Shown in pieces: positions 8,276 to 62,154 of a DNA stretch of 64,000 nt (the first letter of the stretch is position 1; each line of letters opens with the position of its first letter). The DNA is taken from NCBI GenBank assembly GCA_963754185.1, contig CAVWEP010000002.1, forward strand, positions 830,192-894,191, in the 5' to 3' direction. The stretch comes from an uncultured Bacillaceae bacterium (lineage in GTDB: Bacteria > Bacillota > Bacilli > Bacillales > DSM-1321). The notes below the pieces were generated by a model. The model made no database searches and was not told the DNA's origin. It saw nothing but the letters and a program-made list of their open reading frames with translations. The position numbers and the translations under genes were made by a program.

Positions 8276-9686
8276 TTATCTAGCCAATTCATAAATCGCC
8301 TGTGCATAAATCGCAGCGGCCTTTAACAGATCCTCAATCTCCATATATTCATCTTTTTGATGGGCAATATCTTCTCTGCCTGGGAATAGTGGTCCAAATG
8401 CAACCCCTTCCTTCAACGAACGAGCATATGTGCCACCACCGATTGACAGCAATTCTGCTTTTTCACCTGTTGCTTCCTCATACACTTTTTGTAAGGTTTG
8501 AATTAAGAAGCTGTCCTTATCAACATGGTGAGGTGCAGAATTGGAGAAAGACTCTAATTGTAGCTGTAACTTCGCTACATTCGCTGTTAATGTTTCTTTC
8601 CCCTGCTCCCAATCATATGTAACAGGGTAGCGCATCGTAAATCCAACGCTGCTATCTGCTGGTTTAGCATAACGAAGCTTACCAGCATTTAAAGTTAACT
8701 CACCTGTAATCTCATCTTGATACGCTACACCTAATTTATTCCCTCGTGAATCCCCAAATAAATAATCACGAATGAATGTAAAGTATGTAGTTGCATGAGA
8801 GTCTAAATCCAAATCGGCTAAAAATGAACCCAAATAAAGTCCAGCATTGACTCCATTATTCGGCTCCATTCCGTGGGCAGATACCCCTTCAAGCTCCAAA
8901 ATAACCATCGTATGTGAGATTTCCGCTTTTCCTGTTAGCGAATGTTTTTGTAAAAATTGCTCATACGCCTCCGTTACTTCCGCTGCTTTTTCTGTTTCCA
9001 CTTTTGCTACCGCGTAATCAGGTACCATATTCATTCGACGCCCTGAAGAAAATTCCACCACATTCACCGCTGCCTGCTCAACTTGATTCTGCAGGAGCTT
9101 GAACAATTGCAAAATCCCAAATTCCTTTTTCGGCATTAATAATAGGAAAATCAGCATCGGGAGCAAAGCCTACTGTCGGCATTTCCTCTACTTCAAAATA
9201 ATGATTCACACAACGCCAATTTGATTCCTCGTCGGTTCCAATAATCATCCGCACGCGTTTATTGAGGGAGAGGCCTAACTCTTTGATTACCTTCATTGCA
9301 TAATAAGCAGCCATTGTTGGACCTTTATCGTCAATGGCTCCACGTGCGAAGATTTTTCCATCACGGATTTCGGCACCATATGGGTCTGAACTCCAGCCAT
9401 CTCCTTCCGGTACAACGTCAACATGACATAAAATGCCAAGCAATTCTTCGCCTTCCCCCATCTCAATATGCCCAGCTACATGATCTACATTTTTCACCGT
9501 AAAACCATCTTTTTCCCCTAAATTTAGCATATACTCTAATGCTTCCTTGACTCCAACGCCAAATGGAGCGGTATCTGTTTGATTTTCCTCATCAAGCACA
9601 CTTTTAATTTTCAATAAACTTTGTGTATCGGCAAGTAAATCTTGTTTACGATTTTCTATTTCCAATTGCCAATTGATTTTATTCAA
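8276..9686 (-). CDS. pepV: Dipeptidase PepV (M20), frameshifted near 9080-9165
   Basis: CHVDVVP, RGAIDDKGP, GTDEES, GGGTYAR and AHQKDEY motifs, split over two frames. Confidence 0.92.
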
Positions 9687-9808
9687 AGGTCTACACTCCT
9701 CACTTATATTCGCTTCTATTTTAGTTTAGCACAGCCTTTTAACCAATCCAAAAACTGCTCCCTTTTGTAAAGGCTATCCTATTACTTGCATAACGAACAT
9801 AAAATCAT

Positions 9809-9906
9809 GCATTAGAAAAACACGACTTATCGCCCCAATGGCGAAAGTCGATGTCGCATCTTTACTATCGTCCATTAGATATAAATTCTGATAGTATAAA
9901 AAAACA
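9809..9906. repeat. Dispersed two-hairpin intergenic repeat, copy 1
   Basis: Identical to 57515-57613 except for an 8-9 nt linker between the hairpins. Confidence 0.9.
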
Positions 9907-9933: not shown

Positions 9934-10482
9934 CTATTTTACAAATTTAATTTCATTTACTGGCCAGTATACAAAGTTTGCTTTTCCGACGATTTCTTCA
10001 ACAGGAATCGTACCAATTTCGCGGCTATCTAAACTATTTTGACGATTATCGCCCATTAAGAATAATTGGTTATCAGGAACTGTAGCGCTACCCGTTACCT
10101 CTTCAAGCGTAAAATCTCCGGTCAATGGCGCTCCACCCATCTCAGCCTTATACTCTTCTAAATAAGGTTCATCATATTTTTTCCCGTTAATATATAACGT
10201 ATCATTTTTGTATTCAATATGATCCCCAGGCAAACCAATTACACGTTTAATATAATCTCTTTCCTCCGTTGCATGAAAAACAACTACATCAAATCGGTCG
10301 ATACTATCAATATCCGTACCAAACTTATTTAAAATAATTCGCTCATGGTCCAACAAAGTCGGCATCATTGATTCGCCATCAACAACAATTGGCGTAAAAA
10401 TATATGTACGAATTAAGAAAGCCAAAATAACAGCAATAATAATTGCTTTCACCCACGAAAAAAATTCTTTAGATTTCTCCAA
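9934..10482 (-). CDS. lepB: Signal peptidase I (SipS/LepB family)
   Basis: GESMMPTL (catalytic Ser), YIKRVIGLPGD (Lys) and GDNRQNSLDSR motifs; single N-terminal TM helix. Confidence 0.95.
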   Translation of the reverse strand: MEKSKEFFSWVKAIIIAVILAFLIRTYIFTPIVVDGESMMPTLLDHERIILNKFGTDIDSIDRFDVVVFHATEERDYIKRVIGLPGDHIEYKNDTLYINGKKYDEPYLEEYKAEMGGAPLTGDFTLEEVTGSATVPDNQLFLMGDNRQNSLDSREIGTIPVEEIVGKANFVYWPVNEIKFVK

Positions 10483-10568
10483 GCCCTGTCCCTCTCTCTT
10501 CTTAAATTTCTTTAGTCATTATATCATATTTGTATACACTCAGTGATACTATGAATCATAAAGAAAAC

Positions 10569-10950
10569 GTGAATACTCCCCCACTTAAATTCTAACAAAT
10601 TTTGAAGCGAGGGCTTCTTTCCTGTTTCTACCTTCATTGCTCATTGTGACGTCACAAAAAGTCTTACAAAAAGTCCACAGGCGTATTTTTTATACTGGTT
10701 CGGAAAAGACCAATCCTACCAGTTTCCGTTTTTATTTAAACAGGGATAAACATTTGCTCGAGCCCTTTGTTTTTAATGTTGATAACGCTTTTCGACTCCA
10801 AATTGAGGAAATGTAATAGAGTGATAATCCTTTTATTTTTTAAGTTTCGGAAAACGATTTTGACCTTTAAAAAAGCGTTTATACGCATCCATCGGATAGA
10901 TGGCGGTTTTCTCGACTGAAATGATAAAAAGTTTATTCATCATCCTCGAC
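10569..10950 (-). mobile_element. Internally deleted IS200/IS605 element: tnpB fragment plus right end/omegaRNA scaffold
   Basis: 10803-10889 reads DAYKRFFKGQNRFPKLKK*KDYHSITFPQ, a TnpB-type motif with an in-frame stop. It is followed by GCCTGTGGA...GTAAGAC...GAAACAGGAAAGAAGCCCTCGCTTCAA...AAGTGGGGGAGTATTCAC, a typical right end. Left boundary uncertain. Confidence 0.8.
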
Positions 10951-29087: not shown

Positions 29088-29177
29088 TCTCTTCTTCTCC
29101 CTCCTCCCTAAGAAAAATAGAAAATAAAAAAACCACTCTCCTAACAGGAAAGTGGTTTGGTTTTGTATGCAAAGAAT

Positions 29178-29223
29178 CATTAGGAAAACACGACTTATTG
29201 TCCTTATAATGAAAGTCCATGTC
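29178..29223. repeat. Diverged single-hairpin module of the 9809/57515 repeat
   Basis: CATTAGGAAAACACGACTTAT...GAAAGTCCATGTC versus CATTAGAAAAACACGACTTAT...GAAAGTCGATGTC in the full copies. Confidence 0.7.
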
Positions 29224-29249
29224 ATTCCTTTAACGAATACAAAAAACGC

Positions 29250-32424: not shown

Positions 32425-33537
32425 CTATCTACCTTTACGAGGGTTTCCACCATCTCCACGATTTTTGCCATCTCTTTTGTTTTTACCATTATCATTCTTT
32501 TTGTTGTTTCCTTGCTGTTTACCTTTTTCTTGATGTTTATCTTTTTCTTGATGTCTACCTTTTTCTTGTTGTTTATCTTTTTCTCGATGTCTACCTTTTT
32601 CTTGCTGTTTATCTTTTTCTCGATGTCTACCTTTTTCTTGTTGTTTATCTTTTTCTCGATGTCTACCTTTCCCATGATGTCCGCCAGCTCCATGCTGATT
32701 AGCATTTTCACGATTGTCCCAGTATTGATCAATTAATTGCATAACCGATTCTGGGTCTTCTCCCAGTGCAAGCATCGTTTTAACCCATTCTTCTTTAAAT
32801 ACTTTGTGCAGCAAGCCTTCTAGTAAAATCACATAGTTTGCCTCATCTTTTGTCGTCAGCAGCCTTTTGCTTAGCGTTTTCACTACATTGGTCTCTTTCT
32901 TTTCATTAATGAGTACATGATATACTTGACGAGATATTTCTTCCATGCGGATATAGTGCTGCCATTCTTGATACAGCTCTGGAGCCAATTCTTGTACATG
33001 GGATAAAAACATTTCTTTATACTCTTCACCTAAGGAGGTTAATAGCTTGTGTGGATAAGGATATACACGGTCACGCCAAACAGCCCTTGCCACATCAATT
33101 ACTTTTAGACTACCATCCGGCTGCAAATAAATTTGCCGCTTATGGTGGTCAATCCGGTCAAAGCCAACCTCCTTAAACGTAACTAACATCTGAATCAATT
33201 TATAGGAAAGTTCTTTTGTTAGCGGCTGTGATTGCAAGTATTCACGCACATCAACACCTTCAACAAATTCCATCGCAATATAGAGAGAGCCTTTCGCATA
33301 GACTTTCGGGAAGAGACTACTTTTTTGCCCTAGCGAAAGAGCATAATATTCTCGCTCACAATCTTCGGAATTACCAAATACCTTCACACATATATCATTA
33401 GTAAAAGAAAACACTGCCCCTTGTCTCCCTTTACCAATCATCGTTAGCGGGGATTTATTAACGACCTCTACATCTGCATTGATCATATTTTTAACTTGTA
33501 TCTTCTGTACACATTTGTTTAGATATTGAATATCCAT
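32425..33537 (-). CDS. Atypical Ser/Thr kinase (YrzF/RIO-like) with basic repeat tail
   Basis: IGKGRQGAVF G-loop, CVKVF, EREY, RIDHHKRQI catalytic loop and IDVA. AAAGGATGAGG RBS before ATG at 33537. Confidence 0.82.
   Translation of the reverse strand: MDIQYLNKCVQKIQVKNMINADVEVVNKSPLTMIGKGRQGAVFSFTNDICVKVFGNSEDCEREYYALSLGQKSSLFPKVYAKGSLYIAMEFVEGVDVREYLQSQPLTKELSYKLIQMLVTFKEVGFDRIDHHKRQIYLQPDGSLKVIDVARAVWRDRVYPYPHKLLTSLGEEYKEMFLSHVQELAPELYQEWQHYIRMEEISRQVYHVLINEKKETNVVKTLSKRLLTTKDEANYVILLEGLLHKVFKEEWVKTMLALGEDPESVMQLIDQYWDNRENANQHGAGGHHGKGRHREKDKQQEKGRHREKDKQQEKGRHREKDKQQEKGRHQEKDKHQEKGKQQGNNKKNDNGKNKRDGKNRGDGGNPRKGR
32509..32670 (-). repeat. Coding tandem repeat: 9 x 18-bp units alternating as a 36-bp higher-order unit
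   Basis: Encodes KGRHRE-KDKQQE x3, then KGRHQE-KDKHQE-KGKQQG. Confidence 0.95.
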
Positions 33538-52002: not shown

Positions 52003-53196
52003 TTACGCTTGTGCTTTTAAAGCCTCTGCTTTATCTGTACGCTCCCAAGGAAGATCCACATCTGTACGGCCAAAATGTCCATAAGCAGCTGTTTGATTGT
52101 AGATAGGACGACGAAGATCAAGCATTTTGATAATTCCAGCTGGACGAAGATCAAAGTTATTGCGAATTAATTCAACTAATTTTTCTTCACTTACTTTACC
52201 TGTACCAAAAGTATCAACAGCAATCGATACTGGTTTTGCTACACCAATTGCATAAGCCAAGTTGAACTTCAGCTTTATCAGCAAGGCCAGCTGCTACGAT
52301 ATTTTTCGCTACATAACGAGCAGCATAAGCAGCTGAACGGTCTACTTTCGTTGGATCTTTACCAGAGAATGCACCGCCGCCATGACGAGCATAACCGCCG
52401 TACGTATCAACGATAATTTTACGTCCTGTAAGACCAGCATCCCCTTGAGGTCCGCCAATAACGAAACGGCCAGTTGGGTTAATGAAATATTTTGTTTCGC
52501 ATCTAATAATTCAGCAGGAACGACTGCATTAATAACATGTTCTTTAATATCTGCTTGAATTTGCTCAAGTGTTACTTCCGCATCATGCTGAGTAGAAATA
52601 ACAATTGTATCAACACGAACAGGTTTATTGTTTTCATCATATTCAACCGTTACTTGTGTTTTACCATCAGGACGTAGGTATGTAAGAGTTCCATTTTTAC
52701 GAACTTCTGTCAAACGACGAGCAAAGTTGGTGAGCTAATGAGATTGGAAGAGGCATAAGCTCTGCTGTTTCGTTACAAGCAAAACCAAACATTAACCCTT
52801 GGTCCCCTGCACCGATTGCTTCAATTTCTTCATCAGACATTGTTCCTTCACGTGCTTCAAATGCTTTGTTTACACCTTGTGCAATATCAGCTGATTGTTC
52901 ATTGAAAGAGCTTAGAACAGCACAAGTTTCGGAATCAAAACCATATTTCGCACGAGTGTAACCAATTTCTTTAATCGTTTCACGAACAATACTTGGAATA
53001 TCACATATGCAGAAGTTGTAATTTCTCCCGCTACTAGTACAAGACCTGTTGTTACACTTGTTTCACAAGCAACACGAGCATTCGGATCCTTTGCTAGAAA
53101 TGCATCAAAAATCGAATCTGAAATCTGATCACAAATTTTATCCGGATGACCTTCTGTTACAGATTCGGAAGTAAATAGACGGCGTTTCTTTAACAT
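52003..53196 (-). CDS. metK: S-adenosylmethionine synthetase, several frameshifts
   Basis: [34 protein letters not shown] and AAYGHFGR motifs; SAM riboswitch upstream. Confidence 0.97.
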
Positions 53197-53349: not shown

Positions 53350-53515
53350 CTCTTATCGTTCAAGGGTTCTTTACCTTGCTCAGGTTAGCACCAACACCAC
53401 AATTCCTTGAAAAAATGACTGGCTTTATTTTCGACCTTCATTTTCAATTCAAGTTCAAATATGGCAGGTTGCTGGGTTTCATCGGGCCTGTCCCTCCACC
53501 AACTCAGGATAAGAG
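53350..53515 (-). promoter_or_regulatory. SAM-I riboswitch with long P3; terminator at ~53300-53330
   Basis: CTCTTATC...GAG...GGAGGGACAGGCCCGATGAAACCCAGCAACC...GGTGCTAA...GATAAGAG. Confidence 0.95.
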
Positions 53516-53996: not shown

Positions 53997-55583
53997 ATGA
54001 ATTCTGTAGATGTTACGAATGAGTTACATCAATTACTAGCTAGTAAAAGCGCTCAAATACAACTTTCTGTTCCTCAATTAGTCGAAAAAGTACTAAGTCG
54101 TAACGAAGGCGAGCTTACAGCAAGTGGTGCAGTTAAAGCGGTAACGGGAAAATATACAGGTCGTTCTCCTAAAGACAAATATATTGTTGAAGAAGCTTCA
54201 GTAAAAGATAAAGTAGACTGGAACAATAATCAACCAATTTCACAAGAAGTCTTTGATAAATTATATAGTAAAGTAACTGAATATTTAAAACAAAAAGATG
54301 AGTTTTTCGTATTTAAAGGTTTTGCAGGTGCTGATAAATCATCTCGCCTTCCAATTCAAGTTGTCAATGAATTTGCTTGGCACAACCTATTTGCACACCA
54401 GTTATTCATCCGTCCTACAGAAGAAGAATTGGCTAATCACAGTACTGAATTCACTATTTTATCTGCTCCAAGCTTCAAAGCAGATCCAGCTGTAGATGGT
54501 ACAAAAACAGAAACATTTATCATTATCTCTTTTGAACGCCGCACCGTTCTTATTGGTGGTACAGAATATGCTGGAGAAATGAAAAAATCTATCTTCTCTA
54601 TCATGAACTATTTACTTCCTGAGGCAGGAACACTTTCTATGCACTGCTCAGCAAACGTAGGTCGTGAAGGTGATGTAGCTTTATTCTTCGGATTATCAGG
54701 AACAGGTAAAACAACTTTATCTGCAGATGCAAATCGTAAATTAATTGGTGATGACGAGCACGGCTGGTCTTCAAATGGTGTCTTCAATATTGAAGGTGGC
54801 TGCTATGCCAAAACGATTAACCTTTCTCGTGAAAAAGAACCACAAATTTATGATGCAATTCGTTTTGGAACCGTTTTAGAAAACGTGGTATTAGACCCTG
54901 AAACACGTATTCCTAACTATGACGATAACACATTAACAGAAAACACACGTGCAGCATACCCAATGACTGCTATTGACAACATTGTCCTACCAAGTGTAGC
55001 TGGACATCCAAATACGATTGTATTCTTAACAGCTGATGCTTATGGCGTATTGCCTCCAATCAGCAAATTAACGAAAGAACAAGCTATGTTCCATTTCTTA
55101 AGTGGGTTCACTAGTAAACTAGCAGGTACAGAACGCGGTGTTACATCACCAGAAGCAACTTTCTCTACATGTTTCGGTGCTCCATTCTTACCACTTCCTG
55201 CACAACGCTATGCGGAAATGCTTGGTGATAAAATTGATGAGCACAGCGCAAAAGTATTCCTTGTGAACACTGGCTGGACTGGTGGTAAATATGGAACTGG
55301 TAGCCGTATGAAACTTGCTTATACTCGTGCAATGGTTCAAGCTGCTCTTGAAGGTGAATTAACAAACGTGGAAACAGTAAAAGACGAAATCTTTGGTCTA
55401 AACATTCCACTTCATGTACCTGGTGTACCTGACGAAGTTCTTCAACCAAACAAAACTTGGGCTGACCAAGAAGAATACAAAACAACAGCGACTGAGCTAG
55501 CTCGTAAATTCCATGAAAACATTAAAAAATTCGGTAATATTTCTAATGAAATCATTGAGCTTGGCGGACCAATTGTAAAATAA
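53997..55583 (+). CDS. pckA: Phosphoenolpyruvate carboxykinase (ATP)
   Basis: [33 protein letters not shown] and EGGCYAK motifs. Confidence 0.98.
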
Positions 55584-55600: not shown

Positions 55601-55636
55601 AACCCCCATAATGATTTTCCATTATGGGGGTTTTTT
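55601..55636 (+). terminator. pckA terminator
   Basis: AACCCCCATAATG...CATTATGGGGGTTTTTT. Confidence 0.9.
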
Positions 55637-55707: not shown

Positions 55708-55800
55708 TTAACGAATTTTTTCTTGATTGTAGCCACGCTCTCCATATGGCTGAAGATGATGTAACCATTTTTCTTCAAGCTTTTCTAACGCCTCTTTTTC
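55708..55800 (-). pseudogene. C-terminal stump of a Bacillus GIY-YIG-family gene
   Basis: EKEALEKLEEKWLHHLQPYGERGYNQEKIR*, recognised from recall; it begins right at the IS right end. Confidence 0.62.
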
Positions 55801-55801
55801 G

Positions 55802-55955
55802 ATGAACCTCCCCCCACCTATCGCGTTCGCGCTTGAGGAGGGGGTTTCTTGTTGTAAGGAATAACCTAGAAGAAACGAAGCGGATGCTTCTAGGTGTACA
55901 CGACACCCTCAACCGTAGTTCTCCTCTAACAAAGTGTATTGTTTAATACACTACT
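55802..55955 (-). mobile_element. Orphan IS200/IS605 right end / TnpB omegaRNA-like scaffold
   Basis: GAACTACGGTTG...CCTAGAAG...CTTCTAGG...CAAGAAACCCCCTCCTCAAGCGCGAACGCGATAGGTGGGGGGAGGTTCAT. Confidence 0.7.
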
Positions 55956-55967
55956 TATTTCACCACT

Positions 55968-57365
55968 TTAAACATCAATTAAAAATAAATAAATTGGTAA
56001 AATAATAATTAAAACTAGGCTGTATACATAATTCACTTTAATTAAGTCAAACACCCTTCTCTTTAATAGTGAAGAAAGTAAACTATTGACAGCCGTCGCT
56101 GGCGAAATCAGATTTGAAATACTCCATCCCGTAAGTAGCAGTATCCCTAAAAATAAGGGTGTTATCCCGACACTAGCTGGGTCTACTGTTGTAGCTAAAA
56201 TCGTTATAAGAATGATCGGATGTGAGCCTATCATTGATGTTAATACGATAAGCAACAAGGTACAAATGGTAAAGGCAATTGGTAGTGGTATTGGCAATGT
56301 AGAAACCAAAGATGGAATCCATTCTCCCAAATCCGTCTGACTCACAGCTCCACTAAAAAAACCAGCTGTTAGAAATAGGACAATTTCTTTTTTTAAAGCC
56401 GGAATACTTTTAGTCACATGGTCTTTTACACCTTGCTTATAGAAGGAAAAAGAACGACTGATTAAGCACCAGAGCATCGGATAGAATATGGCCGTCAGAG
56501 AAATAATAAGGACCATTGACATAGCAACCAATTTCTCCAAAGCTAGAATAAAAGCCATGGCCAAAAGTAAATACCCTACAAGAGGTAGTAATTTCTTAAA
56601 AGAATTCACTTCGTCCTGCTCATGTATTTCTTCATCTTCTTCGAACGCTGCTGCCTCCTCCCTAATTTCGTTATAACGTAAATGCGGAAAATCAATCAAT
56701 ATGCTTACAAAAACGGAAATGACATAAAACCCTATTAAATAGGGCAAAAGCTCTATCCAATTTACATGCAATGAATTTGTAACGACTGCCATCGCTGCAA
56801 AATAAGGTGACCATAAAATAGCAGATGCAAATCCTCGGTTTAATGCATTATTTAAAATTCTCCAAGATCGTGAACTGCGATGAATAGACGCTAAATGGTG
56901 GACAACTGAAACAGATCCAACATTTAAAAACACAGCTAAAATAGTCATTAAAAATTGAGTTATAATAAAAAAGGGCATACTTCCTTTTATTGAGGTACGA
57001 TAGAATTTCTTTAATGCTGAAACATAAACAGGTAATCGGACAGGAATTCCGAACATTGGTGCAAACACAAATAAAGTAACCAGCGTAACATTTAATGTAG
57101 CAGCTTGTTGCCAGCCAGAAAAGGACACTTTTTGATAGAGCATCAATGCCATTCCTAATACGAGAAAGCAGATTGATAGAACTTGGACTGTTCCCCGGAT
57201 TTTCGGTAAACTAACAAGAATAATTACGAGAACCAAAAGACTAAGCACTGAGCGTAACCAAATAAAACCTGTTAATTGCTGCACTACAAACCCGAATGCT
57301 AAACCTAAAATAAGAAATTTATCTAAATAAAATGAGCATACATTCAATACTTGTTTTCTTTTCAT
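55968..57365 (-). CDS. Polytopic membrane protein (~12 TM), possible ion-transporter-superfamily permease
   Basis: 465-aa hydrophobic ORF with a central acidic loop; no motif I can name securely. Confidence 0.75.
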   Translation of the reverse strand: MKRKQVLNVCSFYLDKFLILGLAFGFVVQQLTGFIWLRSVLSLLVLVIILVSLPKIRGTVQVLSICFLVLGMALMLYQKVSFSGWQQAATLNVTLVTLFVFAPMFGIPVRLPVYVSALKKFYRTSIKGSMPFFIITQFLMTILAVFLNVGSVSVVHHLASIHRSSRSWRILNNALNRGFASAILWSPYFAAMAVVTNSLHVNWIELLPYLIGFYVISVFVSILIDFPHLRYNEIREEAAAFEEDEEIHEQDEVNSFKKLLPLVGYLLLAMAFILALEKLVAMSMVLIISLTAIFYPMLWCLISRSFSFYKQGVKDHVTKSIPALKKEIVLFLTAGFFSGAVSQTDLGEWIPSLVSTLPIPLPIAFTICTLLLIVLTSMIGSHPIILITILATTVDPASVGITPLFLGILLLTGWSISNLISPATAVNSLLSSLLKRRVFDLIKVNYVYSLVLIIILPIYLFLIDV

Positions 57366-57514
57366 CTTCTAACTTCTTTACCTTTCTTTTCAGAGATTAT
57401 TTTCTTTCAAAAGTGTATACATACTTTTTCGTCTACTTTGCATAAATCCCTCTTTTTGTACGAAGTCGACTATGTAATAGTTTAACACTAATTACACGTT
57501 TCAAAGTATTAAGA

Positions 57515-57613
57515 GCATTAGAAAAACACGACTTATCGCCCCAATGGCGAAAGTCGATGTCTTTTCTTATACTATCGTCCATTAGATATAAATTCTGATA
57601 GTATAAAAAAACA
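57515..57613. repeat. Dispersed two-hairpin intergenic repeat, copy 2
   Basis: Near-identical to 9809-9906 and in the same orientation. Confidence 0.9.
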
Positions 57614-57667
57614 GACACATGTCAAGTTTAGCGATGTGCTGGTAGGAACCCGCCTAATACGAACAAA

Positions 57668-57712
57668 TCAAAAAGACGATCCTCCACCAATGTCGGAGAA
57701 TCGCCTTAAAAT
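57668..57712 (-). terminator. Terminator after the two small membrane-protein genes
   Basis: AGGCGATTCTCC...GGAGGATCGTCTTTTT on the minus strand. Confidence 0.8.
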
Positions 57713-57735
57713 TAAATGAACTTAACGACCTTATA

Positions 57736-57855
57736 TCATAAACCATTTTTTTTAAAAAAGTTTAAAAACGCATGGAAAATTTCAATCCCTTGATATAAAA
57801 GAAAACTAGATGCTGTAATTGAAAATAAACTAATCATTAGAAAACGAACCCACAT
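57736..57855 (-). CDS. Unannotated 39-aa single-pass membrane peptide
   Basis: AAGGGGG RBS then MWVRFLMISLFSITASSFLLYQGIEIFHAFLNFFKKNGL*, followed by a terminator. Confidence 0.7.
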   Translation of the reverse strand: MWVRFLMISLFSITASSFLLYQGIEIFHAFLNFFKKNGL

Positions 57856-57889
57856 ACATTTTCCCCCCTTGTATTTTTCTTTTGAAAAA

Positions 57890-58213
57890 TCAAGGGATTT
57901 TTATCACATAATTCGCCTGATAAAAAATAGGCGTAAAGAAGATAAGTTTACTGCGGGCCTGGAAAAACAGGGAACTGAATAAGGTAAAAATAAGAGATAA
58001 ACAGACAAAGAATTGTAGAACGTCTGTTGGAATAAAGGGATGTTTCTTAATGTCATCTTTTAAAGGAAAGTCTTGATCGGCTTCATTAAAGGCAGTTACT
58101 GCTTTATTTTCATGCAAATTTAAAGCTTTCGTATTTTCACCAGTAGATTGGGTATATAAGAAAGACAAAAAAGCAAATAGCAATACGAAGGACAAAATTT
58201 TTGTCTTTTTCAT
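57890..58213 (-). CDS. Hypothetical 107-aa protein with N- and C-terminal hydrophobic helices
   Basis: AAAGGGG RBS; MKKTKILSFVLLFAF... and ...FFTPIFYQANYVIKIP. Confidence 0.7.
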   Translation of the reverse strand: MKKTKILSFVLLFAFLSFLYTQSTGENTKALNLHENKAVTAFNEADQDFPLKDDIKKHPFIPTDVLQFFVCLSLIFTLFSSLFFQARSKLIFFTPIFYQANYVIKIP

Positions 58214-58428
58214 CTTCCCATCCCCTTTCGAAAAATATGTATTCATCATAACTACTATTTATATATTAGTAAACAATAAAATGGAAGAAATTTCAAGCAG
58301 GAAGAATAGAACCTCAATATTCCTGAACAAAAAACTCATGACAGAAAAATATATATTTACTAAAAAAAGATGGAAGTATTCTAAATATCACAGCTCCAAC
58401 AAAAAACAGGCACATGGCCTGCTTTTTA

Positions 58429-58671
58429 CTAATTCGTTGAGTTTAATGACGTAAGAAGATAGGTAATCATCGTTTTTTCACTCTCCCATTCGACTCTACG
58501 AATGACAGCTGTACCACTAGACTCAGAATCAATCGTTTTACGAACTTCAATCGGAATATCAATTGGATACAGACGATAGCCTTCTTTCGTTAAATGAAAA
58601 ATATTTTCTTCCTCACGGATTTCATTTCCTTTCGTGACAATCATCGTATTTAATTCAAACGGAACCCCCAT
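58429..58671 (-). CDS. ytmB: DUF2584 family protein
   Basis: MGVPFELNTMIVTKG...GYRLYPIDIP...SLNSTN; fits synteny. Confidence 0.9.
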   Translation of the reverse strand: MGVPFELNTMIVTKGNEIREEENIFHLTKEGYRLYPIDIPIEVRKTIDSESSGTAVIRRVEWESEKTMITYLLTSLNSTN

Positions 58672-58703
58672 GTCATCATCTCCTTAAATTAATTATAGTT
58701 CCA

Positions 58704-59492
58704 TTATTCCACTCTACTTTTCACCCAAGAGGCTAATCGTTCAACAATTTTCCGATTAATCGCTGGCGGGAAATAATGAGTATACTCTGAAAAATACCAG
58801 CACTCCACTTGTTTGTTATTCGCTCGCATCTCTTTTTCTAGTCGATACGCATGCTCTACTGAAACATTTTGATCCTGCACACCATGAATGATTAACACAG
58901 GCATTTGCAGCCCACTGACTGCTGAAAGCGGTGTTCGCCTTTCGTACTGTTCCGGACATCTCGTTGGTGAACCTCCAATGACACGTTTCATCATTCTACG
59001 CATGTCCACTCTTTCTTCATATGTTAAAAACATATCAGATACTCCGCCCCAAGTAACCAATGAGGTCGCTGTCGGACATTCAAGTGCCGTCCAAAGCGCC
59101 ATAATCCCGCCTCGCGAAAAGCCAAAAATATGAATGCTCTCTTTTTTCACTCGAGGATGATTCACTAACAGTGTAAAACCAGAAATCGCATCATAACGGT
59201 CATCCCCTGCAAAATCCTCATCCCCTTCTCCACCTTGATTCCCACGATAAAACGGGGCGAATACGATAAACCCTTCCGCTGCAAATTGTACAATACGCGA
59301 TGGTCGAACTTTACCGACGTTTTTTATTCCGCCACGTAAATATAAAAAACCATCATGCACCTCTCCATCATTTGGCTCAGCTAACAATCCCTTTACCTCT
59401 AACCCTTGCGATATGTATGTCACAGAATACAAATGAATATTTGGATGCGGTGATGGAAACCGTTGTTTTGAAATGATCTTGCCGTCTTGCAT
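58704..59492 (-). CDS. ytmA: S9/prolyl-oligopeptidase-like hydrolase
   Basis: YLRGGIKNVG, GFSRGG (nucleophile Ser), IIHG.QD and HYF motifs. Confidence 0.9.
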   Translation of the reverse strand: MQDGKIISKQRFPSPHPNIHLYSVTYISQGLEVKGLLAEPNDGEVHDGFLYLRGGIKNVGKVRPSRIVQFAAEGFIVFAPFYRGNQGGEGDEDFAGDDRYDAISGFTLLVNHPRVKKESIHIFGFSRGGIMALWTALECPTATSLVTWGGVSDMFLTYEERVDMRRMMKRVIGGSPTRCPEQYERRTPLSAVSGLQMPVLIIHGVQDQNVSVEHAYRLEKEMRANNKQVECWYFSEYTHYFPPAINRKIVERLASWVKSRVE

Positions 59493-59608
59493 GAAACCGC
59501 TCCTTTCTTCTTCTAGTGTAAAGCATTTTGTGCAATTTATCCCTTATTGAGCACAATTAGAGCCTAGAGTTCATAAGATATTTATAGAACACAAAGGAGG
59601 AAAAAATT

Positions 59609-60604
59609 ATGAAAAAGTGGGTAAAAGCAACCTTTCTTTTCGTATTGGCTTGTTTGTTATTAATTCCTCTGGCAGCCTGTGGAACTCAAGAGGTCACAAA
59701 AGTCCGCGTAGCCGAAGTAACACGTTCTCTTTTTTATACCCCGCAATATGTAGCAATTGAAAGAGGCTTTTTTGAAGAACAAGGCTTGGAAATTGATTTA
59801 AAAACAACCGCTGGTGGAGATAAAACGATGACAGCACTACTATCTGATGGTGCAGATGTGGCGCTTGTTGGTTCTGAAACGTCGATTTACGTGACTGCTC
59901 AAGGCACGAGTGATCCCATCATCAACTTTGCACAGCTTACTCAAACAGATGGTACGTTCCTTGTTTCTCGAAAACCCATTACAAACTTTGAGTGGGATAT
60001 GCTAAAAGACTCGACCTTCCTTGGTCAACGAAAAGGCGGCATGCCACAAATGGCTGGTGAATTTGTCTTGAAAAAACACGGCATTGATCCGCATCAAGAT
60101 TTGACTCTAATCCAAAATGTAGACTTCGCTAACATTGCTACAGCTTTTGCTTCTGGAACAGGCGATTTTGTTCAGCTATTTGAACCGACAGCGAGCATTT
60201 TTGAAAAAGAAGGGAAAGGCCATATCGTTGCTTCTTTCGGTACAGAATCTGGTCATCTTCCGTATACCGTATTCATGGCAAAAGAAAGCTATTTGAAAGA
60301 ACATAAGGATACAGCTGAAAAATTCACCTTTGCACTACAAAAAGCTCAAAAATGGGTTCAAGAAACAGATTCAAAGGAAATTGCCAAAGTAATTGCGCCA
60401 TATTTTGAGGATACCGACCTAGACATTATGGTAACTGTTATTGATCGCTACAAAGCACAAGGATCATTTGCCACGGATCCAATTTTAGATGAAGAAGAAT
60501 GGAATAACTTGCAGGATATTATGGATGAAGCCGGTGAATTGCCAGCACGAATGAAATACGAAGATTTAGTAAATACCGAATTTGCCGAAAAAGTAGCGGA
60601 GTAA
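59609..60604 (+). CDS. ytlA: ABC substrate-binding lipoprotein (NMT1/SsuA-like)
   Basis: Lipobox LAAC; EVTRSLFYTPQYVA and GQRKGGMPQM motifs. Confidence 0.9.
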   Translation: MKKWVKATFLFVLACLLLIPLAACGTQEVTKVRVAEVTRSLFYTPQYVAIERGFFEEQGLEIDLKTTAGGDKTMTALLSDGADVALVGSETSIYVTAQGTSDPIINFAQLTQTDGTFLVSRKPITNFEWDMLKDSTFLGQRKGGMPQMAGEFVLKKHGIDPHQDLTLIQNVDFANIATAFASGTGDFVQLFEPTASIFEKEGKGHIVASFGTESGHLPYTVFMAKESYLKEHKDTAEKFTFALQKAQKWVQETDSKEIAKVIAPYFEDTDLDIMVTVIDRYKAQGSFATDPILDEEEWNNLQDIMDEAGELPARMKYEDLVNTEFAEKVAE

Positions 60605-60608
60605 GGCA

Positions 60609-61373
60609 ATGGTATTTTTAAAAATTAACTCTATCCACCATACGTATTTTACGAAAGATACCGCAACAACCGCACTTGAAAATGTCAACCTTACTATTGA
60701 AAAAGGAGAATTTATTTCCTTTCTTGGTCCGAGTGGTTGTGGAAAAACGACCTTGCTCTCCATTATTGCTGGACTCTTCCCGCCTACTTCGGGAGAAATC
60801 CTATTAGAAGGAAAACGGCTGAAAGCTGGGCAGGATACATCCATCGGCTATATGCTGCAGCAGGATTATTTGTTTCCGTGGAAAACGATTGAGGAAAATG
60901 TCATTTTAGGGTTAAGACTATTGAACATAAAGAACATCGAAGGAAAAGCGTCACAATTGTTAAACGAAGTCGGGTTAACTGGTGTCGAAAAACAATATCC
61001 AAAGCAATTGTCGGGTGGGATGAGACAGCGTGTCGCTCTCGCCCGCACGCTTGCTGTGGATCCCAAAATTCTCCTATTAGATGAACCCTTCTCTGCACTT
61101 GATTACCAATCGAAGCTCAAGCTTGAGGATCTTGTCTCTGAAACATTGAAAGCATTTGGAAAAACAACTATTCTCGTGACCCATGACATCGGTGAAGCCA
61201 TTGCCATGAGCGACCGAATTTATTTATTCTCAGCCAAACCAGGTCGTGTTTATCGAACGTTTGACGTACCTGCTGATTTACGAATAGTAAAGCCCTTCGT
61301 TGCTCGGAATCACCCACTATATCCCTCTCTCTTTCAAACCATTTGGAAGGAGCTTGAAAGTCTTGAACATTAA
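60609..61373 (+). CDS. ytlC: ABC ATP-binding subunit (TauB/SsuB-like)
   Basis: [17 protein letters not shown] and LDEPFSALD motifs. Confidence 0.92.
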
Positions 61374-62154
61374 CCAACTTCATCATGAATTTAAAGCTTC
61401 TTTGGTCAGAGAAAAACGCTGGGTCGGATTTTATCAAGCTTTGATTTTCATTATCTTTTTCAGTGGCTGGGAAATCGCATCAAGAATGCAATGGATTGAT
61501 CCACTCATCTTCAGCTCTCCTACCAAGGTATGGCAGCTATTTATCACAAAAATAAATGATGGTACACTTATGTCTCATATCGGCGTCACCGTCTTTGAAA
61601 CCATTCTCGGATTTATCATCGGCACTTTGCTTGGCACCTTACTTGCATCCGCTCTCTGGTGGTCTCCGATGTTATCAAAGATTCTCGATCCATATCTAGT
61701 AATTTTAAATGCCATGCCAAAAGTAGCACTTGGTCCAATTTTAATTGTAGCGATGGGTCCTGGATTTACCTCCATTATTGCGATGGGCGCTATCATTTCC
61801 ATCATCATTACCACGATTGTTATCTATAATGCCTTTAATGAAGTAGATTCAAATTATTTGAAAGTACTGCAAACATTTGGAGCCACACGTGCACAATCAT
61901 TTATGGAGGCCGTTTTACCATCTTCTTTTTCAACGATTATTTCCACATTGAAAGTAAATGTAGGGCTATCTTGGGTGGGTGTCATTGTCGGCGAATTTCT
62001 TGTATCTGCAAAAGGTCTTGGATACCTCATTATTTATGGCTTCCAAGTATTCAATTTCACCCTCGTTATGCTCTCACTCATGATTATCGCTGTCTTTGCG
62101 ACCATTATGTATCAGCTTGTAGAATGGTTAGAAAAAAAATTAATCAAGCATTGA
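61363..62154 (+). CDS. ytlD: ABC permease
   Basis: [14 protein letters not shown]-like loop and GVIVGEFL motifs; TTG start after AAGGAG. Confidence 0.9.

Follow-up and report, generated by a model that had tools for sequence, protein, structure and literature searches.

Insertion sequences (ISs) of the IS1341 type, which carry tnpB only and include ISDra2 of Deinococcus radiodurans and ISGst of Geobacillus stearothermophilus, are among the closest described relatives of the feature studied here. In these elements a hairpin lies just inside the right end, the stretch between the end of tnpB and the terminus specifies a structured RNA, the flanking DNA supplies the guide, and insertion takes place 3′ of a 5-nt TAM without target duplication (PMC10097598; PMC10055086). 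In ISDra2, bases −5 to −3 pair with −105 to −103 to form a pseudoknot, and the 5′ half of the primary ωRNA, that is, everything upstream of −116, is dispensable, the 116-nt scaffold being enough (PMC10097598). The structure paper describes such a pseudoknot as conserved among all Cas12 guide RNAs (PMC10097598). A second point of comparison is provided by palindrome-associated transposable elements (PATEs), protein-less IS200/IS605 derivatives with an ωRNA-like sequence that would need TnpB in trans (PMC10055086). A third is ISAam1 of Anoxybacillus amylolyticus, whose TnpB has been used experimentally and has the TAM 5′-TTTAA (PMC12908284).

The locus described here lies in a 64-kb stretch of Bacillaceae DNA, which we call the window. 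It resembles ISDra2 and ISGst in its sub-terminal right-end hairpin, in the structured RNA leading to the terminus, in having flanking DNA where the guide would be, and in its position 3′ of a 5-nt TAM with no target duplication. Unlike them, it consists of the last 150 nt only, the left end, tnpB and the 5′ part of the RNA all being absent. It is PATE-like in being a protein-less IS200/IS605 derivative with an ωRNA-like sequence that would need TnpB in trans. In contrast to PATEs, which keep both ends flanking a protein-less core and are mobilisable, only a right end is found here, next to a truncated RNA region. We conclude that the feature is very probably a dead relic of transposition and not a working system. 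It is a known kind of feature, an ordinary genomic scar. Decayed insertion-sequence ends are common, and its biological weight is therefore low.

The relic sits in the 385-nt spacer between two convergent genes, pckA (53997-55583, plus strand) and a gene for a 465-aa membrane protein (55968-57365, minus strand). In minus-strand order the spacer comprises 15 nt of filler, a 151-nt structured stretch, a start-less frame and the pckA terminator hairpin. The features referred to below are as follows, with L030 and L061 denoting loci from a sister genome.

57481 to 57486, plus strand: empty target site TTTAA/C; the sister's 1,637-nt IS lies between 57485 and 57486, in plus orientation
55968 to 57365, minus strand: gene for the 465-aa multi-pass membrane protein, the open reading frame directly upstream of the relic on the same strand
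55953 to 55967, minus strand: 15-nt filler AGTGGTGAAATAAGT at the junction, separating the stop codon of the membrane-protein gene from the IS fragment
55802 to 55952, minus strand: 5′-truncated right end of a tnpB-only IS of the IS200/IS605 family, with 147/152 identity to L030:1809-1959
55933 to 55952, minus strand: first retained hairpin AGTGTATT-AAAC-AATACACT (helix 5), homologous to L030:1809-1828
55861 to 55934, minus strand: long-range helix 6, enclosing hairpins 9 (GGGTGT/ACACCT) and 10 (GAAGC/GCTTC), mapped from the consensus structure
55810 to 55844, minus strand: sub-terminal right-end hairpin CCCCCTCC...GGTGGGGGG (helices 11 and 12), conserved in all family members
55802 to 55808, minus strand: right-end terminus GGTTCAT, of which GGTTC is the 3′ partner of a pseudoknot-like pairing
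55782 to 55801, minus strand: 20-nt would-be guide CGAAAAAGAGGCGTTAGAAA, identical with the start of the gene stump
55708 to 55801, minus strand: GIY-YIG stump (last base of codon 88, codons 89-118 and the stop), from alignment to the intact 118-aa gene
55601 to 55632, no strand assigned: pckA terminator, a strong hairpin with a 13-bp stem, conserved in L061

On the minus strand, the structured stretch (55952-55802) folds at −54.3 kcal/mol with a z score of −3.3, and none of 200 shuffled sequences folded equally well; the plus strand gives a weaker fold (z −2.1). Its last bases, ...GGTGGGGGGAGGTTCAT at 55818-55802, are followed directly by CGAAAAAGAGGCGTTAG..., the start of the stump. The stretch occurs once in the window. 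The first-pass annotation, made from the letters alone, had described a multi-hairpin element of ~150 nt abutting the last 30 codons of a GIY-YIG gene, and that is what we observe at these positions; the relic can thus be recognized by a reader from raw sequence alone.

The relic corresponds to nt 1,488-1,637 of the 1,637-nt L030 element, with 97% identity over the last 150 nt, and its terminus is the right-end terminus of the IS family (...GGAGGTTCAT). The sub-terminal hairpin was first found by blastn beside a TnpB gene on a Bacillus pseudomycoides plasmid. In a permissive search against plasmids, 55850-55802 matched 49 nt there at 84% identity, 10 nt downstream of the gene for a 492-aa protein and in the same orientation. 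This protein is a TnpB, with Pfam OrfB_IS605 and Cas12f1-like TNB domains and a match to NCBIfam guided_TnpB (2e-43). Downstream of five more plasmid tnpB genes the motif GAAACCCC-loop-GGGGGAG(T)RTTCAT recurs, and the same terminus follows tnpB in L004, L006-L010, L060 and L066.

We scanned 185,579 species genomes with the pattern AAGAAACCCCC-N22-32-GGGAGGTTCAT and obtained 49 loci, spread over many Bacillaceae and one Clostridia MAG. All 49 end in ...GGTTCAT, beyond which the flanks are unrelated; the pattern had no matches in viral contigs. A near-complete tnpB lies upstream in 16 of the 21 loci with enough DNA to assess, a partial one in four and none in one, so that truncated copies make up about a quarter (5/21). 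Other solo truncated right ends occur in Priestia abyssalis (L020 and L045, ~360 and ~440 nt) and in an Ectobacillus MAG (L051, ~85 nt), and lengths varying in this way are as random decay predicts. The tnpB of L035 is interrupted.

These sequence comparisons support assignment of the structured stretch to the right end of a tnpB-carrying IS200/IS605-family element in the same orientation. Upstream of 55952, where the flank is the membrane-protein gene, neither left-end sequence nor a sub-terminal left-end hairpin was found, and tblastn with six TnpB proteins detected no tnpB in the 64-kb window. No Rfam model matched the relic at E ≤ 10, whether gathering or permissive thresholds were applied to the window, and the full-length element likewise had no match at E ≤ 1. 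Two candidate functions for parts of the stretch were rejected. The hairpin at 55952-55933 is homologous to IS-internal sequence, which speaks against a terminator of the upstream gene, and the IS homology is likewise clear for the terminal hairpin, which had been considered, together with a short ATG frame (~55766), as an SD-sequestering leader or a type I toxin.

The full-length relative L030 comes from an uncultured soil Bacillaceae MAG that is colinear with the window at 93-95% identity; L061 is the same contig around pckA. L030 1-321 corresponds to window positions 57165-57486 (about), L030 from 1959 onward to the window from 57486 onward, and L030 1992-8000 to 57604-63595. The sister genome thus carries a complete element of 1,637 nt, encoding a 390-aa TnpB (NCBIfam guided_TnpB, 193 bits), 1.6 kb from the position of the relic and on the opposite strand. 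As the L030 flanks match both sides of 57485/57486, the window represents the empty site for this insertion. The sister MAG has a second intact copy (L066), and a copy in Peribacillus asahii (L060) encodes a TnpB that is 92% identical.

The two sisters therefore differ reciprocally: the window has a relic where the relative has an intact gene, and the relative has a full element where the window has an empty TTTAA. These filled and empty sites fix the element's ends and its TAM, TTTAA, within one base. The same pentamer is the TAM of ISAam1; a link to that element found no support, the A. amylolyticus plasmid TnpB compared being only 21% identical to the L030 TnpB and from the other clade. The clade of the 390-aa TnpB is uncharacterized, and its ~235-nt guide-RNA region, with clear covariation, is not in Rfam. 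A cleanly delimited TTTAA-specific TnpB element should be useful for mining compact RNA-guided nucleases.

TTTAA lies 5′ of the left end in 10/10 full-length copies examined (the L030 element, L060, L066 and seven of the B. fengqiuensis type). The intact allele of the GIY-YIG gene reads TTTAA/CGAAAAAG and the window ...GGTTCAT/CGAAAAAG. Aligned allele to allele, the intact ...TACTTTAA/CGAAAAAGAAG stands against ...GGTTCAT/CGAAAAAGAGG in the window, and the longer junction reads are ...GATGCTTACTTTAA/CGAAAAAGAAGAG and ...GGGGGGAGGTTCAT/CGAAAAAGAGGCG, respectively. Since all ten copies follow TTTAA, the insertion into the GIY-YIG gene was a normal, TAM-directed and base-exact event.

The history has two steps, the first of which is shown by comparison of the alleles. 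An IS200/IS605-family element of ~1.64 kb, with tnpB as its only gene, inserted on the minus strand of the window, immediately 3′ of TTTAA and inside codon 88 of the 118-aa GIY-YIG gene, without target duplication, as is usual for this family. One or more deletions, ~2 kb in all, then followed; their outcome can be read from the alleles, and the mechanism given here is our reconstruction. Relative to the inferred intermediate, the window has lost nt 1-1,487 of the IS (the left end, the whole of tnpB and the first ~127 nt of the 277-nt RNA region) and ~502 nt of chromosome (the first 263 nt of the GIY-YIG gene and a remnant of a DUF2087 gene), and the break was rejoined 15 nt after the membrane-protein stop codon. 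The remainder is the last 150 nt of the element, with three structural modules and the terminal hairpin, abutting the last 30 codons of the gene. An insertion followed by a deletion is also what the first-pass annotation had proposed, with the 5′ part of the GIY-YIG gene and the IS body both gone. The intact and window alleles and the TTTAA agree with that proposal: the insertion point follows the family TAM, the stump consists of residues 89-118 only, and tnpB and the left end are absent.

The left junction lies at another TTTAA (55972-55968, minus strand), which overlaps the membrane-protein stop codon and is followed by the 15-nt filler; this may be coincidental, or it may reflect an aberrant event mediated by transposase. 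The filler, AGTGGTGAAATAAGT, aligns neither to the MAG allele (L061) nor to the IS. A metagenome scan for the exact junction did not reveal the intermediate, with the complete IS inside the GIY-YIG gene; its single hit was a chance match to unrelated coding sequence. Lacking both a left end and a TAM to its left, the relic cannot transpose. From 53500 on, every contig with the orphan, L001 and L002 included, is identical to the window; these contigs thus represent one lineage, which gives no information on selection, decay or conservation of the relic.

The stump frame (EKEALEKLEEKWLHHLQPYGERGYNQEKIR and a stop codon at 55710-55708) has 30 codons; it lacks a start codon as well as both the GIY and the YIG motif. 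The 118-aa gene is intact after pckA in four relatives (L061-L064), the allele that the first-pass annotation had expected close relatives to have. In L061 it lies between pckA and the membrane-protein gene and scores 29.9 bits against Pfam GIY-YIG. The intact orthologs, of 114-118 aa, score 29.9-34.6 bits against PF01541 (cut-off 22.6) and 38.6 bits against TIGR01453, below its cut-off of 56. They have GIY...(F)IG motifs, and GERGYN where the conserved C-terminal residues of the domain lie, and they resemble small stand-alone GIY-YIG proteins (PF01541), close to the N-terminal catalytic domain of group I intron endonucleases. Unlike such proteins, the window keeps residues 89-118 only, and the DUF2087 partner has also been lost.

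The stump codons match L061 residues 89-118 at 28/30 positions; the value of 83% obtained against L061 refers to a 36-aa query that includes six translated IS-side residues. At the DNA level, identity to L061 is 93%, beginning with the base next to GGTTCAT and reaching into the pckA terminator, and 4/94 positions of the stump differ from the relative's gene, approximately the genomic background level. The 36-aa stump alone has no Pfam match, and its orthologs pass the threshold; it is thus a remnant of a PF01541 member and not itself a member. A word-indexed search with the stump protein gave no candidate, and neither did tblastn against plasmids. A weak blastn match of the stump led to L005:3990-4090 on plasmid p2 of B. 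paramycoides, a decayed tail of the same GIY-YIG gene that is interrupted by in-frame stops (IEK*ALLALEEK*LEKLQPYGERRYSQKKS*) and lies a short way upstream of a condensation-domain gene.

In the more distant relatives L062-L064, the GIY-YIG gene is paired with a DUF2087 gene and the membrane-protein gene is absent. The DUF2087 partner, of 246-251 aa, lies with the GIY-YIG gene directly after pckA (L062:6777-7894, L063:6706-7830), and a 53-codon DUF2087 tail is kept at L061:7707-8300. The 465-aa membrane-protein gene occurs only in the window and the L061 lineage, where it replaces most of the DUF2087 gene. Its L061 copy (8419-9702) is frameshifted near the 3′ end, giving 427 versus 465 aa, with 98% identical DNA beyond, and this could be either an assembly indel or a real lesion. 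The 465-aa protein matches no family in Pfam or NCBIfam, leaving the earlier label of transporter without family support.

In the L030 clade the tnpB stop codon lies 277 nt before the terminus, so the whole RNA region is non-coding. An alignment of the last 275 nt of 21 family members (A1) is strongly conserved from ~235 nt upstream of the terminus onward, a length to be compared with the 116-nt minimal scaffold of ISDra2. Its consensus has 63 pairs in 12 helices, with 96.5% of cells paired, and 24 compensatory pairs versus 5.6 ± 2.1 in shuffles and 5-11 in slid controls. The 275-position covariance model R1, derived from A1, matches the window at 55802-56001 on the minus strand (80.8 bits, E 2.5e-24). 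Real counterparts are present only at model positions ~126-275, the upstream part of the match consisting of large deletions over coding sequence. The right-end similarity to an IS that the first-pass annotation anticipated is thereby found, in 97% identity to a full element, in the 80.8-bit match and in a terminus common to 49 copies.

Mapping of the consensus shows that helices 5, 6, 9, 10, 11 and 12 are retained in the relic, among them helix 5, which has compensatory changes at all five pairs in the family. The relic lacks helices 2, 3 and 4 together with the 5′ strand of helix 1 and the whole 5′ hairpin. In intact copies, the 5′ partner of the terminal GGTTC is a hairpin loop, GAACC, ~235 nt upstream, which is deleted in the relic. 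This hairpin is the first conserved element after tnpB and has a 4-bp stem with six covarying variants. After adding five more divergent plasmid copies, we compared 14 variants. The 6-nt loop is complementary to terminus positions −7 to −3 in 10 of them, one variant being changed on both sides (GAATC with GATTC), and is not complementary in the other four (GTTCC class). Within the 21-sequence set the pairing never varies on both sides, the two changes seen being one-sided, to G-U. With 4/14 failures and no two-sided variation in that set, the role of the loop-tail pairing is therefore putative. It is like the ISDra2 pseudoknot in that guide-adjacent bases pair with an upstream segment, and by analogy it resembles the pseudoknot recognized by TnpB and Cas12 proteins.

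Having lost helices 2-4 as well as the 5′ hairpin with its loop partner for the bases next to the guide, the remaining scaffold is most likely not competent as a guide RNA. Length alone does not exclude activity of the 150-nt remnant, given that ISDra2 needs only a 116-nt scaffold. In the minimum free energy fold, the junction sequence GGUGAA could pair with UUCAUC as a surrogate closing helix, probably by chance according to a rough count. The first-pass annotation had called the element a stand-alone scaffold, which is right insofar as it is the right end of an ωRNA region and wrong insofar as only the 3′ ~55% of the conserved RNA region is present. The same annotation had pointed to a match between the putative guide and a nuclease-family gene; this match is automatic, the guide being simply the flanking DNA. 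Within the window the 20-nt would-be guide has no second occurrence. A TAM-bearing target exists only in relatives, and the one in L061, TTTAA followed by CGAAAAAGAAGAGTTAGAAA, has two mismatches to it.

The organism carrying the orphan is found in soil and air metagenomes only. One soil metatranscriptome touches the region, with a contig that covers 55842-55952 and runs on into full-length IS sequence (...TTGGGAAACATCTAACGCAAGCACCACTAA) instead of the orphan's flank. The RNA region of the family is thus transcribed in soil, and the contig says nothing on the orphan. From the membrane-protein stop codon to the pckA terminator, the only terminator-like feature is a weak hairpin at 55890-55877. 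With no strong terminator ahead of the relic, passive read-through is therefore plausible, and the membrane-protein gene would be its only plausible source. The relic is probably carried passively in the 3′ UTR of the membrane-protein mRNA up to the shared pckA terminator, which probably also stops minus-strand transcripts that pass through relic and stump.

The alternative that survives best, although improbable, is a working orphan guide RNA, made as a read-through transcript, that uses TnpB in trans to cleave an intact GIY-YIG allele or that serves as a decoy. The relic has kept the 150 nt nearest the guide, with the terminal hairpin and the exact terminus, and it shares the strand of the upstream gene, from which no strong terminator separates it. 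A 116-nt scaffold suffices in ISDra2 (PMC10097598), and protein-less PATEs are thought to supply ωRNAs to TnpB in trans (PMC10055086). The sister MAG sample contains at least two intact IS copies, and a soil metatranscriptome holds RNA from the family's ωRNA region. Against this, helices 2-4 are absent together with the 5′ hairpin whose loop pairs with the guide-adjacent tail; no tnpB lies within the 64-kb window; the sole transcript contig continues into a full-length IS; the target is absent from the organism's own genome as far as the window extends; and remnants of ~85, 360 and 440 nt elsewhere are expected from random decay. We give very little credence to the more specific proposal that the truncated RNA is still made in the membrane-protein transcript and accepted by TnpB from intact copies elsewhere. 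If true, a guide RNA would have outlived its own transposon in a natural setting, as a fossil guide that keeps targeting TTTAA plus CGAAAAAGAGGCGTTAG in any intact GIY-YIG copy arriving by recombination or transfer, or as a TnpB decoy.

Quite improbable, too, is a co-opted 3′-UTR element whose hairpins stabilize or terminate the membrane-protein mRNA. The relic is strongly structured and starts 15 nt beyond the stop codon, and a single weak terminator-like hairpin lies within it (55890-55877), but that site has a 5-bp stem and an interrupted U tract, the sister genome has the same gene without the relic, and the orphan is confined to one near-clonal lineage.

It is exceedingly improbable that the locus is a mobile non-autonomous mini-element, PATE- or MITE-like, inserted as a 165-nt unit. 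Its proper right end and the TTTAA (55972-55968) at the left junction fit such a unit, but it has no left-end hairpin or sequence, its IS similarity begins in the middle of the RNA region, and no second copy exists in the window or in 67 loci. The right flank, moreover, differs from the empty-allele sequence after that TTTAA, so a 500-nt deletion would still be needed.

An assembly chimera joining an IS end to an unrelated flank, which might be suspected from consensus problems elsewhere in the window (metK) and a possible homopolymer error in the relic, has a negligible chance of being correct, as the relic/stump junction is base-for-base identical in three further assemblies from different samples (L001-L003), and therefore no artifact of one assembly, recurs in many soil runs and has a flank colinear with the relatives' gene. 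The suspected error concerns the six-G run in GGTGGGGGG, which has one G more than all related elements and could be a homopolymer error.

Several other features of the window were recorded alongside the dead relic. The metK gene (52003-53196, minus strand) is split into four open reading frames and differs from L002 by 4 single-base indels and 79 substitutions in ~1.2 kb, with identical flanks; this points either to a consensus made chimeric by assembly of mixed strains or to a genuine pseudogene. Upstream of metK, the SAM riboswitch (53350-53515) is intact. At 10564-10620 on the minus strand there is a second right-end-like hairpin, GAAGCCCTCGCTTCAAAATTTGTTAGAATTTAAGTGGGGGAGTATTCAC, of the other TnpB clade (R1 13 bits, E 0.004), ~80 nt upstream of a signal-peptidase-I-like gene (9934-10482) and with no tnpB nearby; it is probably another, shorter IS scar.

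A repeat of ~100 nt is present in full at 9809-9906 and 57515-57613 (95-100% identical) and in part at 29177-29230. Its minus strand has a promoter-like TTGACA-16-TACTAT as well as a pair of hairpins, of which the second is terminator-like (fold z −4.3). The repeat lies upstream of a dipeptidase-like gene and of the membrane-protein gene and has no Rfam match. Soil metatranscriptome contigs match it with foreign flanks, indicating that it is dispersed and transcribed, and the relative's IS is inserted 30 nt from one of its copies. Finally, an 18-nt unit (TACCTTTTTCTTGATGTT-like) occurs eleven times in tandem at 32448-32716, in what is presumably a repetitive coding segment.
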